Below, one piece after another: positions 24,559 to 50,685 of a DNA stretch of 64,000 nt. The stretch is from the NCBI GenBank assembly GCA_016186495.1, contig JACPLO010000002.1:6857-70856 (forward strand), read 5' to 3'. The notes under the pieces are model-generated. The model had not been told where the DNA came from. It did not search any database and saw only the letters and a program-made list of their open reading frames with translations. Origin of the DNA: Candidatus Niyogibacteria bacterium. Lineage in GTDB: Bacteria; Patescibacteriota; Minisyncoccia; JACROR01. The translations under genes were made by a program, and so were the position numbers. Positions within the stretch are counted from its first letter, which is position 1, and every line of letters starts with the position of its first letter.

Positions 24559-25257
24559 ATGCTGCTAAAAGTTCAGGAACGGAAAATTAAAGGAAAAAAA
24601 GTAAAAACTTTGCGCCAGCAAGGCTTGATTCCCGCTGTTCTTTACGGCGGAAACGAAAAAGAGAATACGCTTTTCAGCGTGGAAAATAATGAATTTAAAA
24701 AAGTATGGAATGAAGCGGGCGGTTCTTCGGTGATAGAATTGGAAACTCCGGCCGGAAAAAAAAATGTTTTAATCCAGGATGTGGCGTTTAATCCTTTAAA
24801 AGGCGAGCCGCTTCATATTGATTTTTACGCCGTTAGAATGGATAAACTTATTACAACGGCCGTGCCGATAGTTTTTAAAGGGGAATCTCCGGCGGTGAAA
24901 AATTTAGGCGGCATTTTGGTAAAAGTCGTGCATGAGCTTGAAGTTGAAGCCTTGCCTCAGAATTTGCCTTCGGAAATTTTAATTGATATTTCCGGCTTGG
25001 CGAATTTAAACGATCATTTTATTGTCGGCGATCTTGATTTGGAAAAAAGCGTTAAAATCAAGGCGGAAAAAGACGAAGTCATCGTTTTGGTTAAAGCGCA
25101 GGAAGAAGAAAAAGAAGAAGAAAAAGAACTCGCTCTTGAAGATATTGAAGTGGAAGCGAAAGGTAAAAAAGAAAAAGATGAAGAAGCCGGCGCAACGGCG
25201 TTATCGGAAAAATTGCCGGAAAAGCCGTTGGAAAAATCAAAAAGTGAAAAAAAGTAA
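24559..25257 (+). CDS. rplY: 50S ribosomal protein L25 (CTC type)
   Basis: IPAVLYG, LHIDFY, acidic tail. Confidence 0.93.
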   Translation: MLLKVQERKIKGKKVKTLRQQGLIPAVLYGGNEKENTLFSVENNEFKKVWNEAGGSSVIELETPAGKKNVLIQDVAFNPLKGEPLHIDFYAVRMDKLITTAVPIVFKGESPAVKNLGGILVKVVHELEVEALPQNLPSEILIDISGLANLNDHFIVGDLDLEKSVKIKAEKDEVIVLVKAQEEEKEEEKELALEDIEVEAKGKKEKDEEAGATALSEKLPEKPLEKSKSEKK

Positions 25258-25264
25258 AAGCGTA

Positions 25265-26707
25265 ATGTTTTTTAGAAAATTTCAAACTTTTGTTTTAATT
25301 TTTATTTTTATAACGGGCGCTTTTTTAAGCGTCCGTTCCGCGTTTTCTCAAAGCCAAACCGTTGACCCCGTTAGAGGTAAGATTCCGGAGGAATCTGCCG
25401 GTTTGCCGTTAGCAAATCGGACCTCTAACGGGGTTGATCCGGCCGCGATTTTGGAACAACGGGCTAAACTGCTGGAAGAAGAAAAGGAAGTGGAAGAACA
25501 GATTGGCGGATTGATGGTTATTATTCAAAATAAACAAGGGGAAACCGCCAGTTTGGAGCGCGATATCGCCATTATTAACGCCGAGATTAAAAAAGCAAAA
25601 CTGGCCATTAAAGCCAGAACTCTGACGATTGATAATCTTAATTCATCAATCGGAGAAAAATCTAAATTTATTGTTAAACTTTTAGACAAACAAGAGCGCG
25701 AAAAAGAATCTTTAGCCGAGCTTTTGCGGCAATTGAATGAATTTGGAGACACCACTTTAGTGGAGATTATTTTGGGTTATGAAAATCTTTCCGATTTTTT
25801 CGTGAATATGGATTCTTTGGATTTTCTTCAAAAATTCATTCAGGATTCTTTTGACGAAATTAAAATAACAAAAGAGAATACTGAAGAAGAGAAGTCTATT
25901 CTGGAAGAAAAAAAGAAAGAAGAATCAGAACTCCGTTATTTGCAGGAGCTTGAGAAAAAAAGAACTGAAGAAAGAGAAAAAGAAAAGAAAAAGATTTTAG
26001 AAATTACGCGCGGCGAAGAAAATGAATACCAAAAGCTTTTGGCCAGTCGGAAGAAAGATATTGCTCAAATCAGAAATCAACTTTTTATTTTGCGTGGTTC
26101 GGACGCCATTCCTTTTGAAAAAGCCATTGAATACGCCAATATCTCATTTAAGGCAACAGGCGTGCGCCCAGCTTTTCTTTTGGGAATAATTGCCGAAGAA
26201 TCCGAATTGGGCGCTAATTTAGGGTCCGGAAATTGGAAAACTGACATGTACGATTGTTATCGCCGAATCGGCTACAATAAGTCGGCGGAAAAACAAAAAA
26301 CCGCTTTTTTAGCGATTATTTCAGAATTATTTATTGACAGTCCTGATTCAAGGCCGGTTTCCAAAGCGCCGTATTACGGCTGCGGCGGAGCCATGGGGCC
26401 GGCGCAGTTTATGCCCGCTACTTGGTGGGATCCGGTTGGCAATACGGGATATAAAAAATTGATCGCTCAATATACCGGCCATAATCCTCCGGACCCGTGG
26501 AGTCCGGAAGACGCTTTTATGGCCGCGGCGCTTTTGCTTAAAGACAACGGCGCGGCGGCCGGAGGATTTACCGCGGAACGCCGGGCAGCTTTAAGATATT
26601 TAGCCGGCGGCAATTGGAATAAGCCGGCTTACGCTTTTTACGGCGACGACGTGATGGCTTTGGCTAAAAAATATCAAGATCAGATTGATATTTTAACGGA
26701 ATCTTAA
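25265..26707 (+). CDS. Secreted coiled-coil lytic transglycosylase (SLT-like)
   Basis: Signal peptide, long coiled coil, EES catalytic Glu, [13 protein letters not shown]; start ATG 25265. Confidence 0.82.
25366..25433. mobile_element. Family A element, 68 bp, flanked by TTGA, in frame
   Basis: TTGA ccccgttagaggt ... acctctaacgggg TTGA; 72 nt net; two inner hairpins. Confidence 0.92.
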
Positions 26708-27579
26708 TTTTTAAAAGCTTCAATAATTGGATCAAGATCGCCGGCCATTATTTTATCCAGATTATGCCAAGATTTCTTAAGCCGGTGGTCGGTGACGCGG
26801 TCTTGAAGAAAATTGTAAGTTCTTATTTTTTCCACCCGTTCCTGGGCGCCGATTTGCTCGCGCCGCGCTTCGCGCGATTCTTTTTCTTCTTTTAAGCGCT
26901 GTTCTTCCAAAAGTTTGGCTTTCAAAATGCTCATCGCTTTTTCGCGATTTTTTTGCTGGCTTCTTTCGGCGGAAGAAAAAATGATCAGTCCGCTGGGTTT
27001 ATGAAGAAGACGGACCGCTGTTTCCACTTTATTGACGTTTTGGCCGCCCGGCCCGCCCGCTCGCGTAAAACTGATTTCCAGATCATTTGGTTTTATTTCC
27101 AAATTTTTTTCCGGATAAACGGGAAGAATCGCCACGGAAGCGGTGGAAGTGTGGATGCGGCCGCTTTTTTCCGTTTTTGGCACGCGCTGGATGCGATGGA
27201 CGCCGCTTTCATTTTTAAGGCGCGAGTAAACGCCTTTTCCTTCAATTTCGTAAACCGCTTCTTTACAGCCGCCTTGTTCGCTTTTTGATTCGTTGATTAA
27301 GGAAATTTTATAACCTTTTTTCCCCGCGTATTTTACATACATCGCGGCCAGATCATTGGCAAAAAGAGCGGCTTCTTCGCCGCCGGCGCCGGCCCTGATT
27401 TCAAAAATAATCGTCTTAGGATTTTCTTCCGAAGCTGTTTCTTCTTTTTTTGAAATTTGAGCAATTGATCGGGAAAGTTCCTGCAGTTTTTGGGATTTTT
27501 CAGAAGTCCAATTTTGCGAGAGTTCTTTAATTAACCGGTCATACTCTTGTTTTAATTTTTCAGATTCCGGATTATTCAT
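26704..27579 (-). CDS. prfA: Peptide chain release factor 1, short N-terminal domain
   Basis: [16 protein letters not shown] (PxT), [15 protein letters not shown]. Confidence 0.88.
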
Positions 27580-27806
27580 TTATTTGTTTTTCGGGATTTG
27601 GCTTTGGCTTTTTCCTGGCGCGCTTTGAATTTTTCCACTCGTCCGGCGGTATCAATCAATTTTTCTTTTCCGGTGTAAAAAGGATGGCAAGCGCCGCAAA
27701 TTTCCACCATAATATTTTTTTTAACGGAACCCACGGTTTTTTTATGGCCGCAAGCGCATTCAATAACGGCCTCATTATAGTATTGGGGATGGATGTCTTT
27801 TTTCAT
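27576..27806 (-). CDS. rpmE: 50S ribosomal protein L31
   Basis: [21 protein letters not shown]. Confidence 0.96.
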
Positions 27807-27863
27807 AAAGCTATTTTATCTTTTTAGTTGCAAAAACACAAGACTTCGTTTATGATATTATTT

Positions 27864-28691
27864 ATGGTTGTAACTGACCAAGAAAATCAAAATAAAAATG
27901 AAAATAATAATTTGGCTGTCATTCAAAGCGAAGAAAAATCAGATTTAACCGCCAAAGGGCAGGAAACCGCGGTTTTAGCCGAATCCGCCATTCCCGAACG
28001 CTTTGATCAAGAGCTGGAAAAAATGTTTAAAGCCGGCGTGCATTTCGGCTATTCGCGAAGCCGGCGGCATCCTAAAATGACGCCTTATATTTTCGGTTTG
28101 CGGAACAACGCGGAAGTTTTTGATTTGGAAAAAATAAAAGTGAAACTGAAAGAAGCTTCGGCTTTTATCCGAGAGTTGGGAAAAGAGAAGAAAACCGTTG
28201 TCTTAGTGGGAACTAAACCGGCTATTCGCGATATCGTGGAAAAGGCGGCGCGAGAAGCCGGCCTGCCTTATGTGAATGAACGCTGGTTGGGCGGTTTTAT
28301 CACTAATTTTCCCGTCATCAGGAAAAGAATGGATTATTATGAGAATTTAAAAAATGAAAAAGAAAGCGGCGGCCTGGAAAAATACACCAAAAAGGAACGT
28401 TTGGAAATCGCGAAAGAATTAGCGGTACTGGGAAGAAATTTTGACAGTTTGCTGGCGTTAAAAAAACTTCCCGACGCTCTTTTAATTGTTGATCCTGAAA
28501 ATGAAAAAACAGCCGCCAAAGAAGCGGCGGATAAAAAAATTCCCGTGGTCGCTATTTTGAATAGCGACAGCAATCCGGAAAATATTTCTTATCCTATTCC
28601 GGCCAATGACGCTTCCCGGGCGAGCGTGGATTATTTATTGTCAAAAATTACCGAGGCTTATCAAGAAATTACCGATGCGCCGAAGACATGA
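27864..28691 (+). CDS. rpsB: 30S ribosomal protein S2
   Basis: AGVHFG, RWLGGFITN, PANDAS; start set at ATG 27864 after promoter. Confidence 0.93.
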   Translation: MVVTDQENQNKNENNNLAVIQSEEKSDLTAKGQETAVLAESAIPERFDQELEKMFKAGVHFGYSRSRRHPKMTPYIFGLRNNAEVFDLEKIKVKLKEASAFIRELGKEKKTVVLVGTKPAIRDIVEKAAREAGLPYVNERWLGGFITNFPVIRKRMDYYENLKNEKESGGLEKYTKKERLEIAKELAVLGRNFDSLLALKKLPDALLIVDPENEKTAAKEAADKKIPVVAILNSDSNPENISYPIPANDASRASVDYLLSKITEAYQEITDAPKT

Positions 28692-28735
28692 AGGCAATAA
28701 GGAAAAAAAGCAAAAAATTCTGATAAAAAAATGAA

Positions 28736-28858
28736 TCCCGTTAGAGATTAAAGACTTTATTTTTTAACGGAATTTAAAAATATCTTTAATAATGATAATT
28801 AGAAATTATAAGAATAATTTACGGAAATGATTAAAATCATTTCCTATCTCTAACGGGA
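28736..28858. mobile_element. Family A element, 123-bp subfamily, flanked by TGAA, at tsf start
   Basis: TGAA tcccgttagagat ... atctctaacggga TGAA. Confidence 0.93.
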
Positions 28859-29445
28859 TGAAGAATAATTTAGATATTGTTAAAAAATTAAGAGAAGAAA
28901 CCAATGTTTCGGTAATGGCTTGTAAAAAAGCTTTAGAACGAGCGGAAGGCGATTTTAGCCGGGCTTTGGCGTTTTTGAAAAGAGAGAGCGCCGGAATCGC
29001 GGACAAGAAGAGTGACCGCCGGACCAGTTCCGGTTTAGTGGCGTCTTATATCCATTTGGGAGGAAAAATAGGCGTTTTGGCGGAAGTAAGATGCGAGACC
29101 GATTTTGTGGCGCGAAATGACGCTTTTAAAGAATTTGCCGGAAATATCGCGATGCATATCGCGGCGATGGATCCCCATTTTTTGTCTTTAGATCAGGCGC
29201 CGTTGGAAATTAAAAAAGAAATGAGGGAAATTTTTGAAAAAGAGGCCGCGGAAACGGGCAAACCAGCGGAAATAAAAGAAAAAATTGTTAACGGCAAACT
29301 GGAAACTTATCTAAAAGAAAAAAGCCTTTATTCCCAGTTTTACGTCAAAAATCAGGATATTACGGTGGAAGAATATATCAAGGAAACTATCCAGAAATTC
29401 GGCGAGAACATCGTTGTTTCCCGTTTTGCGCGCTTTGTTGTTTAG
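28858..29445 (+). CDS. tsf: Elongation factor Ts (short form)
   Basis: VKKLREET, CKKAL, CETDFVA. Confidence 0.95.
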   Translation: MKNNLDIVKKLREETNVSVMACKKALERAEGDFSRALAFLKRESAGIADKKSDRRTSSGLVASYIHLGGKIGVLAEVRCETDFVARNDAFKEFAGNIAMHIAAMDPHFLSLDQAPLEIKKEMREIFEKEAAETGKPAEIKEKIVNGKLETYLKEKSLYSQFYVKNQDITVEEYIKETIQKFGENIVVSRFARFVV

Positions 29446-29453
29446 CTGAAATT

Positions 29454-29876
29454 ATGTTTTTTTTCTTAATTTTAATTATTGTTTCTTTTTTTGGAATTTT
29501 AACGACTATTTTCAGGCATTGGCCGCGCGTCCGTTCTTTGCCGCCGGAAGAGATTTCTTCGGTTTTAGCGGGGAGCCGTTCATTTTTGGACGGATTTATT
29601 TTTGGTTTTCTTATTCCGTCTTTCCGGCGCGTTCAGAGCAGTTGCGTGCCGATATTTTACGTTACTTCGGAAAAAACCGTCAGGCGGTCGCGCCTTTTAA
29701 TCCTTAAAATAGAGAGCCGCCTTCAAAAAATAACCGACCATTTGAAAGGCAGGCGGATTTTGAACGTCCAAAACAAAAATAATGGCCGCAATTATGAATA
29801 CTGGCAGGAGATAAACGAACATCAAAACGGTTTAAAAGAGGAAATAAAAGAAGGAGAAAAACCTAAGCCGAGGTAG
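29454..29876 (+). CDS. Hypothetical membrane-anchored protein
   Basis: N-terminal TM; stop codon falls inside the decayed tRNA 5' half. Confidence 0.65.
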   Translation: MFFFLILIIVSFFGILTTIFRHWPRVRSLPPEEISSVLAGSRSFLDGFIFGFLIPSFRRVQSSCVPIFYVTSEKTVRRSRLLILKIESRLQKITDHLKGRRILNVQNKNNGRNYEYWQEINEHQNGLKEEIKEGEKPKPR

Positions 29877-29904
29877 CTCAAAAGCAGAGCAATGGTTTTG
29901 CCCG

Positions 29905-30009
29905 CCCCGTTAGAAATGCCGACGTAGCTCAGTGGTAGAGCAACGGTTTTGTAAACCGTAGGTCGTGGGTTCAAATCCCTCCGTCGGCTCATCGGCATTT
30001 CTAACGGGG
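29905..30009. mobile_element. Family A element, 105 bp, carrying a tRNA gene
   Basis: 18-bp perfect IR ccccgttagaaatgccga / tcggcatttctaacgggg; right flank TAAA, left flank CCCG. Confidence 0.9.
29918..29989 (+). tRNA. tRNA-Thr(TGT), inside the element
   Basis: GCCGACG/CGTCGGC acceptor, GCTC/GAGC D-stem, ACGGT TTTGTAA ACCGT, GGTTCAAATCC; one T-stem mismatch. Confidence 0.9.
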
Positions 30010-30157
30010 TAAACAGGTTGGAGGTTCGAATCTTCTCCTCGACTCCAAGATTAGATTTTTTACAATCATAATTCATGCGGCTTGCTTATTTATCAATGGA
30101 GATTAAAAAATGTTAATATTATGTTATGAAAGTTGTTCTGCTAACGTTCAAGTCCTC

Positions 30158-30877
30158 ATGAAAAAACCGCGGCACATTATTTATCATTCACGGATACATC
30201 TTTTAATAACTATCGGAATAATTTTTATTCCTTTTGTTTTTCTTTTACTCTTTTCGCAATATGCAAAAATTAGCACCGCGAAGCTCTTCGCCAATCTTTT
30301 TGTTTCTTTCTTAAGACTGCTCGCCGCATATCTTATCGCGGCTGTACTTGCTTGGACGAGCGCAGTCTTACTTTATCGGGGGCGGCGAGCTCTTGTCGCG
30401 CTTCCTATTTTTGATGTCTTGCAGAGTTTTCCGACTTTCGCGGCCTTGCCGCTCGCAGTTTATCTCTGGGGGCCGTCAGCAATAACCGTTATCGTATTTT
30501 TAATTTTGACTATTATCTGGCCGATTTTTTTCTCGCTTATCAGTTCTTTAAAGCTTATGCGTAAAGATTGGGAAGAAGCCGCGGCCATTGCGGGACTTCG
30601 CGGTTTTGATTATCTTCGCCGGTTTCTCTGGCCAATCAGCCTTCCCGGCCTTATCACCGGGTCAATTATTGGCCTGGGCGAAGGATGGGAAGCTTTGGTT
30701 GCCACGGAAATAATCGTAGCGGCGCGGACCGGACTCGGCAGTTTTTTCTCTCTCTATGCTCAAGACACCTTCATAACTGTGTTTGGAATAATTGGGCTTC
30801 TTCTCTTTATATTCAGCGTTAATAAAATATTTTGGCTTCCGCTTCTTGAGCGAAGCCATCGTTTGATGGAAGAATAA
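30158..30877 (+). CDS. ABC transporter permease (NitT/TauT type)
   Basis: DVLQSFP, EAA loop WEEAAAIAG, WEALVATE. Confidence 0.85.
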   Translation: MKKPRHIIYHSRIHLLITIGIIFIPFVFLLLFSQYAKISTAKLFANLFVSFLRLLAAYLIAAVLAWTSAVLLYRGRRALVALPIFDVLQSFPTFAALPLAVYLWGPSAITVIVFLILTIIWPIFFSLISSLKLMRKDWEEAAAIAGLRGFDYLRRFLWPISLPGLITGSIIGLGEGWEALVATEIIVAARTGLGSFFSLYAQDTFITVFGIIGLLLFIFSVNKIFWLPLLERSHRLMEE

Positions 30878-30890
30878 ATGGAAGAATAAT

Positions 30891-31475
30891 ATGAACTCGA
30901 TTATCTTTTCATATCTTACACATTGGCGAAGTTTGGGGTATGCGCTTGTATTTATCGGGATGATAATTGAAGGAGACATTATTTTGTTTACTTCTTCGTT
31001 TCTTGCGCATCAAGGTTTTTTTAATATCGGCGATTTAATGTTCTTTGCATTGGCCGGCGTATTAATAGGAGATTTACTGTGGTATTTGCTCGGCTGCCTG
31101 ATGGATAATCATATTAATAATAATTCCAATTTATCTTTTGTAGCCCGCTGGATAGCAAGAATCGCGAAGCCGCTTGACGCTCATCTTCTTAATCGTTCAT
31201 ACCGCACTATTTTTATTTCAAAATTTGCATTCGGCTTTCATCATGCGCTCTTAACGCGTTTAGGCATGCTTCGCTTTTCTTGGAAAAAATTTATTAAAAT
31301 TGATTTTATTTCCGCTGTGCCTTGGATGATTATAGTCGGCGGGCTCGGATATTTTTCTGGAGCAGCTTTTTTTGCTTCAAAACATTATCTTCGGTTAGCG
31401 GAAACAGGATTATTAATTACGCTTGTTCTTTTTCTTGCTATTGAACATTTCGTAATAAAGAAACTGAAACTTTGA
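30891..31475 (+). CDS. DedA family membrane protein
   Basis: IEGD, GDLLWYLLG, ISKFAFG. Confidence 0.85.
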   Translation: MNSIIFSYLTHWRSLGYALVFIGMIIEGDIILFTSSFLAHQGFFNIGDLMFFALAGVLIGDLLWYLLGCLMDNHINNNSNLSFVARWIARIAKPLDAHLLNRSYRTIFISKFAFGFHHALLTRLGMLRFSWKKFIKIDFISAVPWMIIVGGLGYFSGAAFFASKHYLRLAETGLLITLVLFLAIEHFVIKKLKL

Positions 31476-31476
31476 T

Positions 31477-32238
31477 ATGAATCCTACGCTCATTTTAAAA
31501 AATATTTCAAAAAATTTTCAGGAAGATCGCGGGCAGAAACTCCCTGTGCTTAAAGGCATTGATCTTGAAATAGCCGCTGGAGAATTTTTCATAATCCTCG
31601 GGCCCTCGGGGTCAGGCAAGTCAACGCTTCTTCGCATTATGAGCGGCCTTGAATCGGAGTATGAAGGAAAAATCGGATACGGCAGCGGCATTACGCCGTC
31701 TGATTTCAGCTTTGTATTTCAGCAATTTGCGCTCTTCCCGTGGCTTACCGTATTTGAAAATATCGCCATCGGGCTCCGAGCGCGGCATACGCCGGAAAAC
31801 ATTATTAAAGAACGGGTAGAAAATGAACTCAAACGGTTTAATCTAAAGCATTTTGCCGATTCTTTCCCAAAAGAATTATCGGGAGGGATGAAACAGCGCG
31901 TTGGCATCGCCCGGGCATTAACAACCGATCCTAAGATTATTTTTATGGACGAACCATTCTCGGAGCTTGATTCTTTCACCGCTGAAGAGCTTCGCAAAGA
32001 ATTTTCGCATATTTGGAAAGGGCGCCAGCTTGTTGAAGCTGGCGCCCGCCAAACCATTATTATGGTGACCCATCTCATAGAGGAAGCGCTGGAGCTTGCT
32101 GACAGAATCGCCGTGCTTACCCCGCGGCCCGGAAAAATAGAAAGGATTATTACGAACACTCTCGCCAAGCCGCGCAATAAACGATCTCCGGAATTCTTTT
32201 GCCTTGAAGATGAGATTTATAAATTAATAAGGCCGTAA
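31477..32238 (+). CDS. ABC transporter ATP-binding protein (NitT/TauT type)
   Basis: GPSGSGKST, LSGGMKQR, MDEPF, VTHLIEEA. Confidence 0.92.
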   Translation: MNPTLILKNISKNFQEDRGQKLPVLKGIDLEIAAGEFFIILGPSGSGKSTLLRIMSGLESEYEGKIGYGSGITPSDFSFVFQQFALFPWLTVFENIAIGLRARHTPENIIKERVENELKRFNLKHFADSFPKELSGGMKQRVGIARALTTDPKIIFMDEPFSELDSFTAEELRKEFSHIWKGRQLVEAGARQTIIMVTHLIEEALELADRIAVLTPRPGKIERIITNTLAKPRNKRSPEFFCLEDEIYKLIRP

Positions 32239-32250
32239 ATTCCGTAATTT

Positions 32251-32934
32251 ATGAAAAAATACATAATTTCAGCCATAATTTTAATTTTGGGCTTAAGCGC
32301 GTATTATTTTATTTATCAGCTAAAAATCGGAGATAATAATATGAAGGAAGCAAACGAAAATTCTAAGGAGGATTTGAATCCCGTTAAAAATAACGAGTTG
32401 AGCGATGTTGAGAATAGCGCCGCGAAACAGCGTAAAATTTCTAACGGGATGAATCCGCGCGCGACGCTGGAAACGAGCATGGGTAATATTACGATAGAAC
32501 TTTATCCTAAAGATGCGCCGAAAACCGTGGCTAATTTTATCGGTTTAGCTAAAAAAGGATATTATAACGGCGTTATTTTTCATCGGGTGGTAAGCGGTTT
32601 TGTCATTCAGGGAGGCGATCCGACCGGCACGGGCGCCGGCGGCAATTCCATTTACGGCGGCGATTTTGAAGACGAACTTGATTTAAATACGGAAAGTTAT
32701 CAGCGCGGATATTTAAAAGGCGCGGTCGCGATGGCTAATCGCGGGCCTGACACTAATTCCAGCCAATTTTTTATTATGCTTGAAGATAAATCTTTGCCTA
32801 AGCTTTACACTATTTTCGGCAAAGTGGCGGAAGGAGATGATGTCGTCCAAAATATCGGCCGGGTGAAAGTAGGCGCTAATGACAAGCCATTGGCGCCGGT
32901 TATCATAAATAAAATTATTGTTGAAGGAAATTAG
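32251..32934 (+). CDS. Cyclophilin-type peptidyl-prolyl isomerase with membrane anchor
   Basis: APKTVANF, FHRVVSGFVIQGGDP, NSSQFFI. Confidence 0.92.
   Translation: MKKYIISAIILILGLSAYYFIYQLKIGDNNMKEANENSKEDLNPVKNNELSDVENSAAKQRKISNGMNPRATLETSMGNITIELYPKDAPKTVANFIGLAKKGYYNGVIFHRVVSGFVIQGGDPTGTGAGGNSIYGGDFEDELDLNTESYQRGYLKGAVAMANRGPDTNSSQFFIMLEDKSLPKLYTIFGKVAEGDDVVQNIGRVKVGANDKPLAPVIINKIIVEGN
32379..32449. mobile_element. Family A element, 71 bp, flanked by TGAA, in frame
   Basis: TGAA tcccgttaaaaat ... atttctaacggga TGAA; 75 nt net. Confidence 0.88.
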
Positions 32935-32938
32935 TCTT

Positions 32939-32955
32939 ATTTCTAACGGGATTGA
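32939..32955. repeat. Orphan right arm of family A element
   Basis: atttctaacggga TTGA. Confidence 0.65.
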
Positions 32956-33014
32956 TTTATTTTTTTTATAATGATATTTTTTAAATAAATAAGTTCATTT
33001 ATATCGGAGGCGAT

Positions 33015-33644
33015 ATGGATACAGGAAAATTCATTGTTTTTGAAGGCGGGGAAGGCTGCGGAAAAAGCACCCAAGCGAATTTACTCTTTGAATGGCTGAA
33101 AAAAAACGGCTATGATGTTTTACTAACCAAAGAACCCGGAGGCGACGAAGGAATTTGCCGAGAGATAAGATCAATTCTGCTTAATAAAAATTATCAAGAA
33201 TCATTTTCCGAAAGAACGGAATTGCTTCTTTTTACGGCGGATCGGGCCCAGCATGTTGATTTTACGATTAAACCGGCTTTAGAGTCCGGAAAGTTCGTGA
33301 TCAGCGATCGTTATGAAGCTTCCACTTTTGCGTATCAATGCGGAGGCCGGAAAATCGAGCCGAAAAATTTTCTATGGTTAAACAGATATGCCGCTAAAGG
33401 GTTGCGTCCGGATTTTACTTTTTGGCTTGATCTTGATCCGAAGATCGGTTTGCGCCGGAATATGAATACGGAAAAGCGCGATCGGTTTGAAACTGAAGAT
33501 GTTATTTTTCACAATCAAGTTCGCGAAGGATTTGTTAATTATTTTCAGGCCATTAATTCTTATTCGTACAAAAAACTGGAAGGACAGTTATCAATTGAAG
33601 AGCTGCATCAATCGGTTTTAACAACAATAAGACAGTTTATCTAA
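33015..33644 (+). CDS. tmk: Thymidylate kinase
   Basis: FEGGEGCGKST, KEPGG, ADRAQH, SDRY. Confidence 0.95.
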   Translation: MDTGKFIVFEGGEGCGKSTQANLLFEWLKKNGYDVLLTKEPGGDEGICREIRSILLNKNYQESFSERTELLLFTADRAQHVDFTIKPALESGKFVISDRYEASTFAYQCGGRKIEPKNFLWLNRYAAKGLRPDFTFWLDLDPKIGLRRNMNTEKRDRFETEDVIFHNQVREGFVNYFQAINSYSYKKLEGQLSIEELHQSVLTTIRQFI

Positions 33645-33661
33645 CTGTCTTATTTTTTTTT
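33626..33661 (+). terminator. Intrinsic terminator after tmk
   Basis: aataagacagtt tatct aactgtcttatt plus T run. Confidence 0.75.
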
Positions 33662-33717
33662 GATCAGAAATTTTTTTTGCTTGTTTTATTATTTTTTGTT
33701 AATTAAAATTAAAAGAT

Positions 33718-34992
33718 ATGACAACTTCTAACGGGGTAAAACAAAATATCGTTATTTTGGGAGCGGGGTTTGCCGGCGTGAGAGCGGCTTTGGATTTAGC
33801 CAGATACCTGCCTTCGGAAGCGAAAATTACCCTGATTGACCGGAATTCTTTCCATTCATACACGCCGGCTTATTACGAAGTGGCGGCCGCTTTTTTGCCG
33901 GAAAAAGAAGAGCTTTCCCGGGAACAATTTGAATTATTGGCTTCAACCGCCGCCATTCCTCTTAAAACTATTTTTGAAAAATATAAAAATGTGGAATTGG
34001 CAATCGGCGAAGTGGCGGATATTTTGCCTGAAAAAAATCAGATTGAGATAAAATCGGGCGGAAAATACCGCTATGATTGGCTGATCATCGCTTTGGGAAG
34101 CGAACAAGATTATTTCGGGTTATCGGAGATCAAAAAATATGTTTATACTTTAAAAAGCCTGGAAGGCGCGCTTAATTTGCGGAACGGCATTGATGAATTA
34201 TTTTGGCGCCGGGCTAAGCATGAAAAAATAAAAATAATAGTGGCGGGCGGCGGATTTTTGGGAAGCGAGATAGCGGCCGAACTTGCCGGTTATGTCAAAA
34301 AACTTAATCGCCAACATTCTCGGCCAAAAGAAAATTGCGAAATAAGCATTATTGAAGGAGGACAGAATGTTTTAGGAAACGCCAGCGAATGGGCGCGGAA
34401 AAAAGCGGCCGGCCGGTTGGAAAAATTGGGCGTAAAAATTTCAACAAACAGTTTAATCAGCAAAGTAACCGAAGAAAAATTGATTTTGAAAGACGGCCAA
34501 ACTGTTTCTTATGATATTTTAATTTGGACAGTCGGCGTTCGGGCTTGCGCGATTACCGGCCAACTGGTCGGCCAAGGGCAAGAATTAAAGGGCAAAGGAT
34601 GCCTGGCCGTTGACCGATATTTGCGCGTCATTCCCTATGAAAATATTTTTGCCGCCGGAGATATTGCTTACGCGTCCGATTACGAAATAAATACTTTTAT
34701 GCCGATGACCGCTCAAGTCGCTATTCTTCACGGCCAATATATCGCTTACACGATAAAAAGAATGATTCGCAAACGCCGCCCGTTCCCTTATTGGCCGCAC
34801 CAAAATAGATTTAGCATCGCGCTTGGCGGAAAATACGCGCTTTTTGACGGAAAGCGGTTTAAATTCTCCGGTTTTTTCGCCTGGCTTTTGAAACATTTGA
34901 CGACTTTAAAATATTTCGCGGGCATTCTTCCTTTTTATCGCGCTTTTTTTATCTGGCAACGGGGTTTTAAGATATATAAAGATAACGATTAA
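33718..34992 (+). CDS. Type II NADH dehydrogenase-like FAD oxidoreductase
   Basis: GAGFAG, GGGFLGSEIAAE, FAAGD, TAQVA. Confidence 0.82.
   Translation: MTTSNGVKQNIVILGAGFAGVRAALDLARYLPSEAKITLIDRNSFHSYTPAYYEVAAAFLPEKEELSREQFELLASTAAIPLKTIFEKYKNVELAIGEVADILPEKNQIEIKSGGKYRYDWLIIALGSEQDYFGLSEIKKYVYTLKSLEGALNLRNGIDELFWRRAKHEKIKIIVAGGGFLGSEIAAELAGYVKKLNRQHSRPKENCEISIIEGGQNVLGNASEWARKKAAGRLEKLGVKISTNSLISKVTEEKLILKDGQTVSYDILIWTVGVRACAITGQLVGQGQELKGKGCLAVDRYLRVIPYENIFAAGDIAYASDYEINTFMPMTAQVAILHGQYIAYTIKRMIRKRRPFPYWPHQNRFSIALGGKYALFDGKRFKFSGFFAWLLKHLTTLKYFAGILPFYRAFFIWQRGFKIYKDND
33723..33740. repeat. Orphan right arm of family A element in NDH-2 N-terminus
   Basis: aacttctaacgggg TAAA; same subterminal sequence as 37516-37535. 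Confidence 0.8.
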
Positions 34993-35055
34993 CCGCGGCC
35001 TTGATTTTTTTTTAAAAAAAGCGAATAATAGAAGTCGTTTAATTTTAATGATGAA

Positions 35056-36270
35056 ATGATAAAAAGGATTTATCTTGATCATGCTGCCGCCACTTATCTG
35101 GATAAGCGCGTCCGGCGGGCAATGAATTCATTTTGGGAAGAAAATTTCGGCAATCCTTCTTCTTTATATAAAGAAGGAAGAAAAGCGAAGAAAGCGCTTG
35201 ATCAGGCGCGGGCGGGCATCGCTTCGCTTATCAACGCGCGGCCGGATGAAATTATTTTTACCGGCAGCGGCACGGAAAGCGATAATTTGGCGATTTTCGG
35301 AATAGCCAAAGCGCTTGGAGTTCCGATTTCCAAGCCAAAAGGGCATATTATCACCACTAAAATAGAACATCACGCGATTTTGAACGCGGTTGAAAATTTA
35401 GAGGAAGAAGGTTTTGAGGCGACTTATCTGAATGTGGATAAAAATGGGCTGGTTGATCCGATTGACGTTAAAAAAGCCCTGCGTCCGGACACCGCGCTGG
35501 TTTCCGTAATATACGCCAATAATGAAATCGGAACTATTCAGCCTATCGCGGAAATTTCCGAAATAATCAAAGAATACCGGAAAAATAAAATGGGAATTCA
35601 GGAAAAAACTCCGTTTTTTCATTCCGATGCCTGCCAAGCCGCGGGTTATTTGGAAATGGACGTTGAAAAATTGGGCGTGGATTTGATGACGGTCAACGGT
35701 TCAAAAATTTATGGCCCAAAAGGGATAGGATTTTTATACGTCAGATCGGGCGTAAAATTAAAACCGATTATTTACGGAGGCGGCCAGGAAAAAGGTTTGC
35801 GTTCAGGAACGGAAAATTTGGCGGCGATCGTTGGTTTGGCCGAGGCCTTTAAAATCGCTCAACAAGAAAGAAAAAAAGAATCGGCGCGCCTGATAAAACT
35901 TCGCGATAAGCTGGCTCAAGGCATTTTAAAAACCATTCCTAAAACCGTTTTGAACGGCCATCCTGAAAAACGTTTGCCCAACAACGTGAATGTTTCTATT
36001 CTTGATATTGAAGGGGAAAGCACTATGCTTTATCTGGACGCTCGCGGCATTGCCGTTTCCACTGGTTCGGCTTGCACTTCACGGAGTTTAGAGCCCTCTC
36101 ATGTCATTTCCGCGCTGGGCCGGCCTTTTGAATATGGCCACAGTTCGCTGCGCCTTACCTTAGGCAGAAAAACCAGCAAAAAGGAGATAGATTATGTTTT
36201 AAAAATTTTGCCGGAAGTGGCGGGGATTTTGAGAAAAATTTCTCCTTTTTTGCTGAAGGCAAAAAAATAA
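35056..36270 (+). CDS. iscS: Cysteine desulfurase (IscS/NifS)
   Basis: YLDHAAAT, GNPSS, SKIYGPKG, STGSAC, EPSHV. Confidence 0.92.
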   Translation: MIKRIYLDHAAATYLDKRVRRAMNSFWEENFGNPSSLYKEGRKAKKALDQARAGIASLINARPDEIIFTGSGTESDNLAIFGIAKALGVPISKPKGHIITTKIEHHAILNAVENLEEEGFEATYLNVDKNGLVDPIDVKKALRPDTALVSVIYANNEIGTIQPIAEISEIIKEYRKNKMGIQEKTPFFHSDACQAAGYLEMDVEKLGVDLMTVNGSKIYGPKGIGFLYVRSGVKLKPIIYGGGQEKGLRSGTENLAAIVGLAEAFKIAQQERKKESARLIKLRDKLAQGILKTIPKTVLNGHPEKRLPNNVNVSILDIEGESTMLYLDARGIAVSTGSACTSRSLEPSHVISALGRPFEYGHSSLRLTLGRKTSKKEIDYVLKILPEVAGILRKISPFLLKAKK

Positions 36271-43458: not shown

Positions 43459-43466
43459 ATAATGAA

Positions 43467-43588
43467 TCCCGTTAGAGATTAAAACCTTTATTTTTTAACG
43501 GAATTTAAAAATAACATCAATGAAAATAATTAGAATTACAAGAATAATTCACGGAAATGATTTTAATCATTTCCTATCTCTAACGGGA
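43467..43588. mobile_element. Family A element, 122 bp (123-bp subfamily), flanked by TGAA, at scpB start
   Basis: TGAA tcccgttagagat ... atctctaacggga TGAA; interior similar to 28736-28858. Confidence 0.93.
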
Positions 43589-44217
43589 TGAATTTATCCA
43601 ACATTATAGAATCAATTTTGTTTATTTACGGCGAGCCGATGAAAATATCGCGGCTGGCTGAAATTTTAAACAAAAAAGAAAACGAAGTGGAAGAGGCTTT
43701 GGCGGTTTTGGAAAATAATTTAGCGGAACGGGGATTAAAATTAATTAAAAACAACGGCGAAGCAACGCTGGCCACTGTTTCCGAAGCTTCCGAATTTATC
43801 CAAGGGCTTTTAAAAGAAGAATTCAGCGGTAAATTAACCAAAGCGGCTTTAGAAACTTTGGCGATTGTCGCATATTCAGGCCCTTTGCCGCGCGCGGAAA
43901 TTGATTTTATCAGGGGAGTAAATTCTTCTTTCATTTTGCGGAATTTGCTGATCAGCGGGCTGGTGGAAAGGGAAATTAATCCTAAAGACCGGAGAACTTT
44001 TATTTATAAGCCGTCAATGGATTTTTTGCGGTTTTTAGGCCTTAGTAAATTAGAAGATTTGCCGGAATACGGCGAATTTCGGAAAAGTTTGGAAGATTTT
44101 TCGTCCCTCACGCTTAATTTAAACGTGAGGGGCGAAGAAGAAATAAATCCCGTTAGAAGCCGTGATCGCTTTATGAAACAGCCGCAATCTAATGAAAATC
44201 AAAATTCATCAGAATAA
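43588..44217 (+). CDS. scpB: Segregation/condensation protein B
   Basis: ALETLAIVAY, IRGVNS, FGL-type LGLSKLEDLP; tail extended by repeats. Confidence 0.92.
   Translation: MNLSNIIESILFIYGEPMKISRLAEILNKKENEVEEALAVLENNLAERGLKLIKNNGEATLATVSEASEFIQGLLKEEFSGKLTKAALETLAIVAYSGPLPRAEIDFIRGVNSSFILRNLLISGLVEREINPKDRRTFIYKPSMDFLRFLGLSKLEDLPEYGEFRKSLEDFSSLTLNLNVRGEEEINPVRSRDRFMKQPQSNENQNSSE
44100..44136. repeat. Palindrome inside scpB tail
   Basis: ttcgtccctcacg ... cgtgaggggcgaa, 13-bp arms with one G.T. Confidence 0.65.
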
Positions 44218-49779: not shown

Positions 49780-50478
49780 GTGCCTTACCCATTTTTATTG
49801 CAATCCCATATTAAATCCGGCCGATTGGCTCACGGATATTTGTTGATCGGTTCAATTGAACAGGCAAGAAAAATCGCGGCGGAAGCGGCCGGCCGGCTGC
49901 TTGAAAATTTCAATCAAAACCATCCTGATTTTTTTGAATTTTGCGGCGAATCTTTCGGCATCAGCGAGGCGAGAGAGTTAATCAGAAAAACTTATCTGAA
50001 AGCATTCGGCGCCGGCAACAAAAAAATATTTTTTATCGGCGCGGAAACTATAACTTTGGAAGCTGCCAGCGCGCTTTTAAAAACAATGGAAGATTTTTCA
50101 GACGCGGCGCATTTTTTTCTTTCCGTTCTTTCGGAGGAAAATTTGCCGGTTACTCTTTGTTCGCGATTGGTTAAAATCCGGATGGCTTTTGAGCCGGAAG
50201 CGGGCTTCACGGACTATTGGCGGAATTTTGAAAAGAAACCTCATATTGATAAAATGGAATATCTTAAAAAAATAGCGGATAAAAAAGATGAAAAAGAACA
50301 AAAAAAAATTTTGGACGCCCGCGAAATTTATTTTGAAGATATTTTAAAAAATAGCGGCAATGACGAACAGCGAAAAAAATCTTTGGAAAATTTGGAAAAT
50401 CTGGTTTTCGCGAGAGAATTAATGGACGGTCCGGCCGCTTATCCTAAATCTATTTTAGAATATCTGATATTAACATGA
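49780..50478 (+). CDS. Divergent DNA polymerase III delta-prime-like protein
   Basis: LAHGYLL, HPD, AASALLKTME, TLCSR. Confidence 0.7.
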   Translation: MPYPFLLQSHIKSGRLAHGYLLIGSIEQARKIAAEAAGRLLENFNQNHPDFFEFCGESFGISEARELIRKTYLKAFGAGNKKIFFIGAETITLEAASALLKTMEDFSDAAHFFLSVLSEENLPVTLCSRLVKIRMAFEPEAGFTDYWRNFEKKPHIDKMEYLKKIADKKDEKEQKKILDAREIYFEDILKNSGNDEQRKKSLENLENLVFARELMDGPAAYPKSILEYLILT

Positions 50479-50479
50479 A

Positions 50480-50602
50480 TCCCGTTAGAGATTAAAACCT
50501 TTATTTTTTAACGGAATTTAAAAATATCATCAATGAAGATAATTGGAAATTACAAGAATAATTTACGGAAATGATTTTAATCATTTCCTATCTCTAACAG
50601 GA
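50480..50602. mobile_element. Family A element, 123-bp subfamily, flanked by TGAA
   Basis: TGAA tcccgttagagat ... atctctaacagga TGAA. Confidence 0.92.
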
Positions 50603-50685
50603 TGAAATACGCTTTAATTATTATTTTAACATTTTTAATAATTATTTTTGTTGTTTCGGCGATAAGATTGATGATAGGAAATTAG
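50602..50685 (+). CDS. Putative 27-aa single-TM small protein
   Basis: MKYALIIILTFLIIIFVVSAIRLMIGN; without the element its ATG overlaps the upstream TGA (ATGA). Confidence 0.45.
   Translation: MKYALIIILTFLIIIFVVSAIRLMIGN

Follow-up and report, generated by a model that had tools for sequence, protein, structure and literature searches.

The stretch of DNA analysed here, a window of 64,000 nucleotides from a Candidatus Niyogibacteria genome (G000), contains three copies of a small repeat subfamily, each 122-123 bp long and each placed on a start codon, namely those of tsf, scpB and a small ORF. The copies are 89-96% identical in pairwise comparison and end in 13-bp inverted arms, TCCCGTTAGAGAT and ATCTCTAACGGGA, which are exact in copies 1 and 2, with one mismatch in the right arm of copy 3. 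With up to 2 mismatches allowed, the window contains 17 instances of the arm motif, compared with 0.98 ± 1.0 after shuffling (0/100 shuffles reach 17). As a sequence-only reading of the window had recognised, the three similar copies sit at ATGAA; TGAA is found on either side of all three, and an A precedes the left TGAA each time. Their only coding content is a 6-codon relic ORF, and the individual features are collected in Table 1.

Table 1. Positions in the window of the three start-codon repeats, their parts and the genes that follow them.
Feature	Position	Strand	Remark
Original tsf start ATG (28731-28733) and left TGAA duplication (28732-28735)	28731..28735	+	G001 empty site ...gaataATGAAaacgg
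Relic mini-ORF ATG AAT CCC GTT AGA GAT TAA (MNPVRD-stop)	28731..28751	+	Opens at the original ATG, spans the entire left arm
Copy 1, element proper, 123 bp	28736-28858	+	tsf
Left arm TCCCGTTAGAGAT	28736..28748	+	Same sequence as the left arm in the nuclease-bearing element of G004
Inner "arm mimic" TTTTTTAACGGA	28760..28771	+	Left-arm pairing over 10 bp including 2 G-U
Subterminal hairpin GGAAATGAT-loop-ATCATTTCC	28823..28844	+	Remnant of the parent's covarying inner stem
Right arm ATCTCTAACGGGA	28846..28858	+	Last A is the A of the rebuilt ATG
Right TGAA duplication	28859..28862	+	
tsf (EF-Ts, 195 aa) from the rebuilt ATG	28858..29445	+	N-terminus aligns with the EF-Ts starts of G001 and G002
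Copy 2: ATGAA 43462-43466, element 43467-43588 (122 bp), TGAA 43589-43592	43462..43592	+	
Rebuilt ATG (43588) of copy 2, opening scpB (209 aa)		+	Site empty in G001
Copy 3: ATGAA 50475-50479, element 50480-50602 (123 bp), TGAA 50603-50606	50475..50606	+	Right-arm mismatch CAGG

In the same-genus comparison genome G001, the tsf, scpB and small-ORF sites are all empty and read as uninterrupted ATGAA; the three copies are therefore insertions with a 4-bp duplication. The rebuilt ATG codons at 28858, 43588 and 50602 open ORFs of 195, 209 and 27 codons, respectively, at a spacing of 127, 126 and 127 nt from the old ATG, which is followed by a stop after 6 codons. Pfam identified the first two downstream proteins as EF-Ts, with an E of 1.5e-34, and ScpB, whose match begins at residue 6 with an E of 1.1e-39; the 27-codon ORF is conserved in G001, and the left TGA of copy 3 is the stop of a 240-codon upstream frame. 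The N-termini of the host proteins are unchanged by the three insertions, because the terminal purine and the duplicated TG rebuild the start codon. Junctions such as TTGAA^C..G^TGAA in other family members indicate that this terminal purine, and not a 5-bp duplication, creates the new ATG or GTG. The ORFs, the Pfam matches and the empty sites thus confirm the earlier proposals that the last A of the right arm and the repeated TG recreate the ATG and that the insertion is harmless to the protein downstream.

The subfamily belongs to a wider set of elements with the same type of arms, in which perfect 4-bp direct repeats of varied sequence flank 35 of the 45 non-tRNA members in G000. The duplications are varied T-N-N-A words (TGAA, TTCA, TAAA, TTTA, TTGA, TTAA). 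Other subfamilies in G000 occupy TAAA/TTTA, TTGA and TTAA sites that are not starts, and TCAA/TTGA target sites are common in G012, hence start codons are not the sole target of the family. Stop codons, the spaces between genes and in-frame positions inside genes accommodate many copies, the insert at window positions 32379-32449 being one of the in-frame kind. The same arms also bracket tRNA genes; the copies concerned lie within tRNA relics that have diverged but share the identity of the tRNA they carry, which fits replacement and not splicing, and ARAGORN in intron mode gave inconsistent calls on them. Four groundwater metagenome runs, searched over 25001-36200, contained many contigs that share the arms with other interiors and flanks, and among the joints listed for these runs none skipped exactly the element.

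Transposase genes were sought in five genomes. The IS1380-type transposase (NF033539) was found in 0/5 and DDE_Tnp_1 (PF01609) in 1/5, with the arms absent from its locus, which led us to reject a DDE partner of the IS1380/piggyBac type. Y1_Tnp was present in 3/5 genomes, though not in G000, with no such arms within ~1.3-1.5 kb; a hairpin element derived from IS200/IS605 (PATE/REPIN) was likewise rejected, given the target duplication and Y1_Tnp genes that are not flanked by the arms.

The counts support an association with start codons far above a survival-only null, a null that was built for G000 on crude longest-ORF gene calls. Of the G000 family members with a TGAA/TTCA flank, 13/25 adjoin an ORF of at least 80 codons, compared with 161/869 free TGAA sites outside CDS interiors that lie at starts (binomial p 1.7e-4). 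Within the subfamily, and including 17 subfamily-like copies from other genomes and metagenome contigs, ORF starts are occupied by 3/3 copies in G000, 9/9 in other genomes and 5/8 on metagenome contigs, or 17/20 overall, against 219 of 617 ATGRR sites (p 7.6e-6). The duplications of the start-site copies are TGAA, TGAG or TGGA, each preceded by A, and the hairpin faces the gene in 16 of the 17 (p 2.7e-4). The exceptions are three subfamily-like copies off starts and a single reversed copy at a start. Random placement of the copies elsewhere, which would have spoken against the sequence-only reading, was thus not what we found; the inner arm mimic, its other touchstone, turned out to be strong in one lineage only, as described below.

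The same arms and right subterminal sequence bracket a longer element of ~280 bp in related Patescibacteria, whose sole gene encodes a GIY-YIG nuclease of ~95 aa. In G004 (locus L083), the 280-bp element shares the 13-nt arms and also the 19 nt of the right end, TTTCCTATCTCTAACGGGA, and its 95-aa ORF, which begins at the host ATG and finishes with the TGA of the rebuilt ATGA, matches Pfam PF01541 (GIY-YIG) with an E of 1.7e-18. The nearest solved chain is PDB 1ZG2 (UPF0213; E 2.1e-5), and NCBIfam yielded nothing beyond a weak, sub-threshold match to the group I intron endonuclease model. In many parents the nuclease frame opens at the host ATG, reads the left arm as M-N/S/D-P-V-R-D and goes on across an inner stem and then the right arm (..R-F-L-S-L-T-G), to end with the TGA of ATGA. 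Relatives of the nuclease are present in 147/201 genomes of the class (E ≤ 1e-8), and 14 of the 30 loci retrieved hold an intact, arm-flanked nuclease frame. In nine of these 14 the frame starts at an ATG situated 5 nt ahead of the left arm, in 13 it ends with the flanking TGA, and 12 adjoin an ORF of at least 144 codons at the rebuilt ATG/GTG; 4 further parent copies with ATGAA^..^TGAA are broken or frameshifted. Use of the host ATG is not universal, since five of the 14 have neither the left ATG nor the left duplication, the frame is out of register with the host ATG at L102 and L104, and the parents share a conserved internal Met (..MFYTYV..) that may be the real start of the nuclease.

Beyond the arms, ~30 nt on the left side and 19-25 nt on the right side of the small copies match the parents, the 5' strand of their hairpin matches the LRK codons of the parents (..TTACGGAAA..), and the relic mini-ORF is homologous to the N-terminus of the parent nuclease ORF (MSPVRD.../MNPVRD...). 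Judged from the arms and subterminal sequence that they share, the 123-bp repeats are cut-down, non-coding (MITE-like) copies of the ~280-bp nuclease element, and they display the features by which MITEs are known, that is, inverted arms, a duplication with empty sites, no coding capacity and a longer coding element, the last outside G000. What is new here is that repeats on start codons are tied to a parent element with a GIY-YIG gene only, through the arms and the right end they have in common. A nuclease-bearing element with these arms was not found in the G000 assembly, where the one strong GIY-YIG gene carries different arms, ATCCCTCACCC, and where CCCGTTAGA words number 85.

Inspection of the interior revealed the hairpin GGAAATGAT/ATCATTTCC and the left-arm-complementary segment TTTTTTAACGGA in all three copies. 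In the parents, the two strands of the inner stem lie ~150 nt apart inside the ORF and covary. Across 13 parents, pairing reaches 98.8% in the outer arms, where 8 pairs have changed on both sides, and 89% in the inner stem, which has 6 such pairs; the total of 14 compensatory pairs compares with 6.3 ± 1.3 after shuffling (0/500 reach 14) and with 1-6 when the strands are slid. The hairpin of the small copies is this covarying inner stem, minus its loop. Being inherited from a coding parent, it more probably serves the mobile element in cis than acts as a switch of translation; the conserved hairpin that had been pointed out beside the right arm is real, but a part in regulating initiation is not supported for it.

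The arm mimic fared similarly. In the G000-type lineage the predicted duplex of left arm and mimic has an energy of −11.6 to −15.9 kcal/mol (p 0.003-0.01), the value for copy 1 being −11.6 kcal/mol against −4.1 ± 1.7 for shuffled sequence. A left-arm-complementary segment is found 24-28 nt into the element in four lineages, but the pairing is weak in Wolfebacteria-type copies (p 0.01-0.24), L013 and L022, and absent in L018 and in 10/13 full-length parents; the mimic noticed about 25 nt into the element is thus present in all three copies and strong in this lineage only. Both of the alternative folds that had been envisaged are predicted. Folding of the 5' part alone pairs left arm and mimic in each of the 3 G000 copies and in most others, and the arm-mimic fold is the minimum-energy fold of the whole region in 3/12 contexts (the small-ORF copy, L021 and L024). 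However, the arm-arm duplex, at ~−21 kcal/mol, is about twice as stable, and folding with the left arm held open gave no clear or consistent gain in the accessibility of the start codon.

The region was also examined for signals of transcription and translation. Rfam covariance models gave 0 matches at E ≤ 1 over 28650-28950, and scans for sigma-70-type promoters and terminators in the three copies gave no excess over shuffles (2, 2 and 0 promoter-like sites against shuffle means of 1.2-1.8). No Shine-Dalgarno sequence precedes the rebuilt ATG at the copy 1 locus, and the organism uses few such sites, with GGAG or GAGG at a spacing of 3-12 before ~11-12% of 492 long ORFs. We also considered a full-length upstream mini-ORF that always ends 4 nt before the rebuilt ATG, an arrangement present in only 5/16 subfamily-like copies and 2/15 G000 elements, and discarded it.

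In light of these data, we asked how else the position of the repeats could be explained. Survivorship might suffice if the elements were cut and pasted at loose T-N-N-A sites in either orientation and the start-codon copies were merely the harmless ones left; the varied T-N-N-A duplications, the many copies at stops, between genes or in frame within them, and a coding density of 0.905 would all agree with this. Free non-coding TGAA sites, however, outnumber start sites ~4:1 (665 + 43 vs 161), yet 13/25 copies are at starts, and the 17/20 subfamily copies at starts each follow an A and are restricted to TGAA, TGAG or TGGA. Moreover, with T..A at the ends of the element, the ATG would be restored just as well by a copy in reverse, yet 16/17 share one orientation, and the arms were found beside no DDE-type transposase gene in the five genomes, leaving this account unlikely. 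Alternatively, a full-length nuclease element could have landed at each site and later lost its interior, the short form itself never having moved. Indeed, full-length elements are found at sites of this kind and face the same way, and broken and frameshifted ones exist; nevertheless, independent deletions would have differing endpoints, whereas one deletion architecture is common to the three G000 copies, at 89-96% identity, and another (120-121 bp) to the eight copies of a Wolfebacteria MAG, and decay in place appears very improbable.

A different possibility, which the sequence-only reading had favoured, is that the repeat is a portable 5' leader kept for its function, in which the left arm would pair with either the mimic or the right arm and so tune initiation. 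The prediction of both folds, with mimic pairing when only the 5' part is transcribed, the recurrence of the complementary segment in four lineages, the 16/17 orientation relative to the gene and the scarcity of Shine-Dalgarno sites, which would make structure around the AUG matter, are all consistent with a leader. Against this stand the inheritance of hairpin and arms, with their covariation, from a coding parent, a mimic that is weak or absent outside the G000-type lineage and in most parents, the greater stability of the arm-arm duplex and the lack of an Rfam match or promoter-like excess; furthermore, the genes served are unrelated, and G001 runs the same three without the element. A regulatory leader is accordingly not borne out, and we regard it as distinctly unlikely. 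The arm-arm stem could also act at the RNA level, as an RNase III-type or intron-like signal through which the mRNA would start, or be rejoined, at the AUG. The start codon does lie exactly at the base of a 13-14-bp stem, and tRNA genes are bracketed by the same arms, but the varied 4-bp direct repeats and the empty sites in G001 indicate insertion of DNA, and the tRNA-nested copies in same-identity tRNA relics fit replacement, so that such a device is hardly credible.

Taken together, we favour, with a probability of about 0.6, the reading that the repeats are cut-down, non-coding copies of a GIY-YIG element and that a nuclease of this kind, provided from elsewhere, probably inserts them into A^TGA(A/G) at start codons. 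Mobilisation by a small GIY-YIG nuclease would explain the landing on start codons. The nuclease, which resembles the Ssn nucleases discussed below, would recognise the folded arms, the inner hairpin and the target A^TGAR, and such recognition would make the insertion specific in site and orientation; the 4-bp duplication and the last A of the element would then rebuild the ATG. Stop/start coupling at ATGA would provide for translation of the host gene behind a parent element. In the 123-bp copies, ribosomes from the retained original ATG may read the 6-codon relic ORF across the left arm, thereby opening the arm-arm stem and freeing the rebuilt ATG, and in an organism with few Shine-Dalgarno sites an unpaired AU-rich start region would suffice. 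Of course, GIY-YIG enzymes hydrolyse DNA and are not known to join strands, and hydrolysis by itself would account neither for the pasting-in of the element nor for the 4-bp duplication; this, together with the failure to find a nuclease-bearing element with these arms in the G000 assembly, counts against mobilisation by the nuclease.

More tentatively, the repeats could be non-coding satellites of a new class of bacterial transposon, with an Ssn-like nuclease of ~95 residues as its only protein and a borrowed start and stop, that would form a new, translationally coupled cistron ahead of housekeeping genes across Patescibacteria. The element of such a class would insert orientation-specifically into A^TGA(R) and take the host ATG for its nuclease, and the host would receive a rebuilt ATG overlapping the borrowed TGA stop of the nuclease.

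By landing on the one word whose 4-bp duplication brings back a start codon and a stop codon together, the element would illustrate a way for mobile DNA to persist in genomes with almost no spare DNA. The link between a large, undescribed set of hairpin repeats in Patescibacteria and a tiny GIY-YIG nuclease turns into a testable question whether a hydrolytic, hairpin-specific nuclease can be the engine of a transposon. For annotation, the starts of tsf and other essential genes will be set wrongly by gene callers at these sites, which also offer a natural test bed for translation initiation beside a stable stem in bacteria poor in Shine-Dalgarno sites.

Several known systems share parts of this organisation. 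Correia elements of Neisseria and classical MITEs are ~100-150 bp long, with terminal inverted repeats, a short duplication, many copies and co-transcribed hairpins; Correia elements duplicate TA and have, to our knowledge, no known autonomous partner, and classical MITEs derive from DDE insertion sequences, whereas here a GIY-YIG nuclease is all that the partner encodes, and insertion is at a start codon. IS200/IS605 and REP/REPIN-RAYT systems (Y1 HUH) combine a hairpin-recognising enzyme, orientation-specific insertion by a short word and non-autonomous hairpin derivatives, and the last two are seen here too, but those systems use an HUH tyrosine enzyme and make no target duplication, unlike our element, and the Y1_Tnp genes in 3/5 genomes are without the arms. 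piggyBac and IS1380 likewise make a 4-bp duplication of a T..A word, and their ends beginning CCC may resemble those of the element, although an IS1380-type transposase was absent from all five genomes. Elements of the type of the Rickettsia palindromic elements (RPEs) are hairpin-forming mini-elements tolerated inside or at the edge of genes, and we know of no nuclease-bearing parent for RPEs. They are named among the in-frame palindromic repeats in the text of PMC3184786. Other members of the family in G000 are in-frame inserts as well, but the 123-bp subfamily sits at the start codon, adds 126-127 nt that include stop codons and is not read into the host protein. The REP2 or contact-regulatory repeats of Neisseria, as the same text describes them, are dispersed, 120-150 bp long, with internal stem-loops, adjoin ORFs and supply the ATG, and carry their own promoter and ribosome-binding site without terminal inverted repeats (PMC3184786). 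Our element is likewise a dispersed repeat of similar size with an internal stem-loop directly against ORFs, yet it is bounded by inverted arms, duplicates its target and has no more promoter-like sites than shuffled sequence, and its ATG is rebuilt and not brought.

Among the papers listed in a literature search, none dealt with inverted-repeat elements at start codons in Patescibacteria or with a bacterial GIY-YIG-only element with target duplication, though the lists of Ssn homologues and SRM counts that accompany PMC11893778 might include Patescibacteria. The closest system is Ssn, in which, according to the text of that paper, a small single-domain GIY-YIG gene is bracketed by hairpin repeats with many gene-less copies (Chenal et al. 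2025, PMC11893778), and its authors remark there that NTS-ssnA-NTS resembles an insertion sequence. The main text does not contain the terms "start codon", "duplication" or "Patescibacteria". Our putative nuclease resembles, by their description, the hairpin-specific single-strand nucleases of the Ssn family, which belong to CDD family cd10448 and cut single-stranded DNA at specific sites. As in the Ssn arrangement described, the GIY-YIG gene of the parent is flanked on both sides by its hairpin repeat, which is multiplied in the genome. The arms TCCCGTTAGAGAT do not fit the NTS/SRM consensus as printed in that text (CGTCATTCCCGCG..GCGGGAATC..), TCCCG alone being shared by eye, and the repeats form one long inverted pair and an ORF-internal stem, whereas those described for Ssn are separate ~30-bp hairpins. 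Unlike Ssn, the copies described here carry 4-bp target duplications on start codons, and the ORF borrows its start and its stop from the target.

The three repeats of 122-123 bp in the window (the 123-bp subfamily) are near-identical, with left end TCCCGTTAGAGAT and right end ATCTCTAACGGGA, and each lies between two TGAA words with an A ahead of the left one, so that the terminal A of the element and the TG of the right-hand TGAA rebuild an ATG in all three cases. The rebuilt ATGs open ORFs for EF-Ts (195 aa), ScpB (209 aa, with a Pfam match starting at residue 6) and a hydrophobic product of 27 codons (MKYALIIILTFLIIIFVVSAIRLMIGN), which is conserved in the same-genus genome G001 and is therefore probably a real small membrane protein. 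The arm motif is matched 17 times in the window, against 0.98 ± 1.0 by chance. In G001 the orthologous tsf and scpB sites and the small-ORF junction are uninterrupted (...gaataATGAAaacgg, ...caagatcATGAAtttacc and ...atacgaATGAAatacgc, respectively), and relative to these sites the genome studied here, G000, has gained the element and a second TGAA. The three copies are insertions with a 4-bp duplication, and the start codon is rebuilt by the terminal purine of the element. EF-Ts N-termini from G000, G001 and a further genome, G002, align at one common start. The sequence-only observation, that repeats at start codons regenerate the ATG, is confirmed and extended, and its reading as a harmless insertion is supported.

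Positions of the elements and associated features (window coordinates, the window being G000 C1:6857-70856, or G000 contig:position)
Feature	Position	Remark
123-bp subfamily, copy 1	window 28736-28858	at tsf
123-bp subfamily, copy 2	window 43467-43588	at scpB
123-bp subfamily, copy 3	window 50480-50602	at small ORF; one arm mismatch
Inner mimic	window 28760-28771	TTTTTTAACGGA
27-codon ORF	window 50602-50685	3' of copy 3
71-bp family member	window 32379-32449	flanks AGGAGGATTTGAA (left), ATGAATCC (right)
Similar in-frame member	C12:50463-50558	102 nt
Tandem 35-bp minimal hairpins	window 9339-9373; C9:32466-32537; C9:161746-161817	
AGAAAG subfamily, 78-80 bp	C4:8324; C6:26455; C8:5523; C9:39278; C11:68156; C12:15042; others	
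GIY-YIG unit of G000	L087:1481-1769 (C9, about 152711-152999)	arms ATCCCTCACCCTTT / AAAGGGTGAGGGAT
tRNA-enclosing unit	window 29867-30048 (C1:36723-36903)	
tRNA-enclosing unit	C6:25712-25845	
tRNA-enclosing unit	C9:30598-30704	
tRNA-enclosing unit	C10:20551-20787	doubly nested
tRNA-enclosing unit	C11:11209-11315	
tRNA-enclosing unit	C11:12979-13079	
tRNA-enclosing unit	C11:68507-68614	

A scan for paired arms with core CCCGTTAGA revealed 52 pairs in G000, spanning 27-273 bp, with largely unrelated interiors and small subfamilies only. In every pair the base ahead of the left core is a pyrimidine and the base behind the right core is its matching purine, and 35 of the 45 tRNA-free pairs show a perfect direct repeat of 4 bp beyond these two bases (TGAA/TTCA, TAAA/TTTA, TTGA, TTAA or TTTG). 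Cases such as TTGAA-C...G-TGAA and ATGAA-C...G-TGAA (hyphens mark element boundaries) show that the duplication is 4 bp and that the terminal purine creates the new start codon, ATG or GTG; likewise, ATGGA-C...G-TGGA in the genomes G012 and G004 converts ATG to GTG. In G012, another family-level genome, about 12 copies (among loci L026-L060) replace an ATG start by a rebuilt GTG, and the commonest duplications there are TCAA/TTGA, in GTCAAC/GTTGAC contexts. The 71-bp member in the window adds, with its duplication, 75 nt in frame without a stop, and is either an in-frame insert or an exchange of a TTG start for a rebuilt ATG. Tandem 35-bp hairpins have a common 6-nt spacer, GTTTAC/GTAAAC, and look like insertion of a new copy in the duplicated target of the previous one. 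The AGAAAG subfamily is located at TAAA, TTTA or TTAA words, two of which are stop codons of long ORFs, and since T-rich sequence often follows these copies, they may act as terminator-like hairpins.

Seven arm-flanked units in G000 enclose intact tRNA genes, without a 4-bp duplication (flanks CTTG and TGAA, or similar), and most of these units lie between the two halves of another tRNA-like gene, which has diverged. The outer tRNA could be identified directly in three: a Gln(CTG) interrupted in its T-loop by a unit with an inner Gln(CTG), and two relics, one Leu and one Thr(TGT)-like, both split in the anticodon loop. ARAGORN called 48 tRNAs in G000, with no tRNA-Gln(TTG) among them.

The preference for start codons was evaluated with our own crude gene calls for G000 (671 ORFs, coding fraction 0.905), in which free TGAA sites comprise 161 at ORF starts, 43 at stop codons, 665 in intergenic or edge positions and 7387 inside CDS. 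Thirteen of the 25 family members flanked by TGAA/TTCA adjoin an ORF of at least 80 codons via a rebuilt ATG or GTG, compared with 161/869 free TGAA sites as background (binomial p 1.7e-4). For the 123-bp subfamily, an exact scan for the hairpin-plus-arm motif in one genome per species gave 9 further copies, 8 in one Wolfebacteria MAG and 1 in another Patescibacteria MAG, all flanked by an A followed by TGAA, TGAG or TGGA, with the identical four bases at the right. A metagenome scan gave 8 loci: three with the arrangement of the genome copies (L021, L022 and L024), one with its right end on a 116-codon ORF and a composite left side (L023), one reversed on an opposite-strand start codon (L018) and three away from starts (L019, L020 and L025). 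In total 17/20 copies lie at ORF starts, against 219 of the 617 unoccupied ATGRR sites outside coding interiors in G000 (p 7.6e-6). The hairpin end is on the gene side in 16 of these 17 copies (p 2.7e-4), and two other G000 subfamilies also keep one orientation to the gene (3/3 and 2/2). Both element ends read T...A and a reversed copy would restore the ATG equally; the orientation bias is therefore unexplained by start-codon repair alone.

Pfam searches of five genomes found PF01541 matches of ~88-100 residues in each (2 in G000, one of them strong, 2 in G012, 5 in G004, 11 in G011 and 9 in the Wolfebacteria MAG). At L083, a G004 locus, one of these small GIY-YIG genes is enclosed by the exact arms of the 123-bp repeats, with junctions ...gcggaATGAG-TCCCGTTAGAGATCC ... 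CGTTTCCTATCTCTAACGGGA-TGAGtaaa. The left ATGAG provides both the TGA stop of the upstream ScpB-like gene and the ATG of the nuclease frame, which runs for 95 codons (Pfam E 1.7e-18; nearest solved chain 1ZG2, E 2.1e-5), is translated as MSPVRD across the left arm and as ...RFLSLTG across the right arm, and ends at a TGA that consists of the three bases next to the element; the next host ORF starts at the last A of the element plus TG. This parent element has an ORF whose start and stop codons are both borrowed. Relatives of the nuclease occur in 147/201 genomes of the class (E <= 1e-8). Among 30 nuclease loci examined, 14 contain an intact frame between CCCGTTAGA-type arms, opening at the ATG five bases before the left arm in 9, stopping at the flanking TGA in 13, with a perfectly matching 4-bp duplication in 8 and an adjoining ORF of at least 144 codons in 12; five are without the left ATG and the left duplication. 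The other 16 loci include 11 more with arm pairs 270-285 bp apart, four of which have ATGAA-...-TGAA, but with a stop or frame shift. A conserved Met around codon 9-11 (..MFYTYV..) may be the nuclease's own start; the host ATG is therefore used often but not universally.

The arms of another parent, L121 (CCCCGTTAGAAGT), are those of the 110-bp subfamily of G000, and its N-terminus, MNPVRS, matches the relic frames of that subfamily. Other CCC-initial arms also flank GIY-YIG genes, including G000's own, and a cognate parent of the 123-bp repeats was not found in the G000 assembly. The only strong GIY-YIG gene of G000 (87 aa from its own ATG) has different arms; its unit occupies the gap from the stop TAA of one gene to the ATG of the next, without a duplication, and the nuclease stop TGA lies within the right arm, 3 nt ahead of that ATG. 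G000 contains just 5 occurrences of the word CCCTCACCC. Y1_Tnp (HUH) proteins of ~224-270 aa are present in 3 of 5 genomes searched (L079 and L082 in G004, five copies in G012, and G021), and their genes are not adjacent to the studied arms.

Sequence matches identify the 123-bp repeats as cut-down parents. The small copies match full-length elements over ~30 nt beyond the arms at the left end (for example, ATGAATCCCGTTAGAGATCAAAGACTTAT in L100 and ...GATTAAAGACTTTAT at tsf) and over 19-25 nt at the right end, their hairpin corresponds in its 5' strand to the nuclease codons ...TTACGGAAA..., and the relic mini-ORF, MNPVRD-stop, is the beginning of the old nuclease frame. In the parents, this codon segment (GGAAACGYTTNAA) and TTNAARCGTTTCC, the latter just inside the right arm, form an inverted repeat ~150 nt apart within the ORF. 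In an alignment of 13 parents, pairing reaches 98.8% in the outer arms, where 8/13 pairs have changed on both sides, and 89% in this inner stem, where 6/15 have; the 14 both-side changes compare with 6.3 ± 1.3 after shuffling (0/500 reach 14) and 1-6 for slid partners, and both stems are under selection. The conserved hairpin noted from sequence alone is thus this inner stem without its loop, a structure that the mobile element keeps, most simply as a cis-acting signal to the agent that mobilises it.

A portable regulatory leader with two folds had also been suggested, in which the left arm pairs either with the inner mimic or with the right arm. In the three G000 copies the mimic can pair with the left arm at −11.6 kcal/mol, and in L021 at −15.9 kcal/mol (p 0.003-0.01 vs shuffled interiors), compared with about −21 kcal/mol for the arm-arm duplex, and predicted folds alternate between the two, with local pairing when only the 5' part is present. 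Elsewhere the complement is weaker, at the same distance of 24-28 nt in L024, L013 and Wolfebacteria-type copies (p 0.01-0.24) and at about 47 nt in L022 (p 0.26); L018 has no complement, and 10/13 parents have nothing above shuffles. In the Wolfebacteria-type copies the mimic aligns to the nuclease Y-T-G codons. Two folds are therefore possible, with modest conservation; the regulatory leader is an unproven reading, and a structure acting in cis for mobility is the more likely one.

By analogy with Ssn nucleases, which recognise their repeats, we infer that the nuclease would recognise the folded ends together with an A followed by TGAR, giving site- and orientation-specific insertion that gene-less copies would inherit. 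For the parent, translational coupling at the ATGA overlap would tie the host gene to the end of the nuclease frame. The 123-bp copies retain the original ATG with its upstream region, and there ribosomes on the six-codon relic frame would open the left arm and so expose the rebuilt ATG; GGAG/GAGG at SD spacing precedes only about 11-12% of 492 long G000 ORFs, so an open AU-rich start would be enough.

A literature search on start-codon inverted-repeat elements in Patescibacteria and on GIY-YIG-only elements did not find this arrangement among the listed records. Among described systems the closest is Ssn, with NTS/SRM repeats and GIY-YIG nucleases that are hairpin-specific, act on single strands and recognise their own repeats (PMC11893778); a term search of that paper gave nothing on target duplication, start codons or Patescibacteria. 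In both Ssn and the parent, hairpin repeats with many further copies in the genome bracket a small GIY-YIG gene (PMC11893778). RPEs, Correia elements, REPINs/RAYT and IS1380/piggyBac each agree with the 123-bp repeats in some traits and differ in others. The Neisseria REP2 repeat likewise supplies the ATG of downstream genes, but it is without inverted ends and brings a promoter and RBS (PMC3184786).
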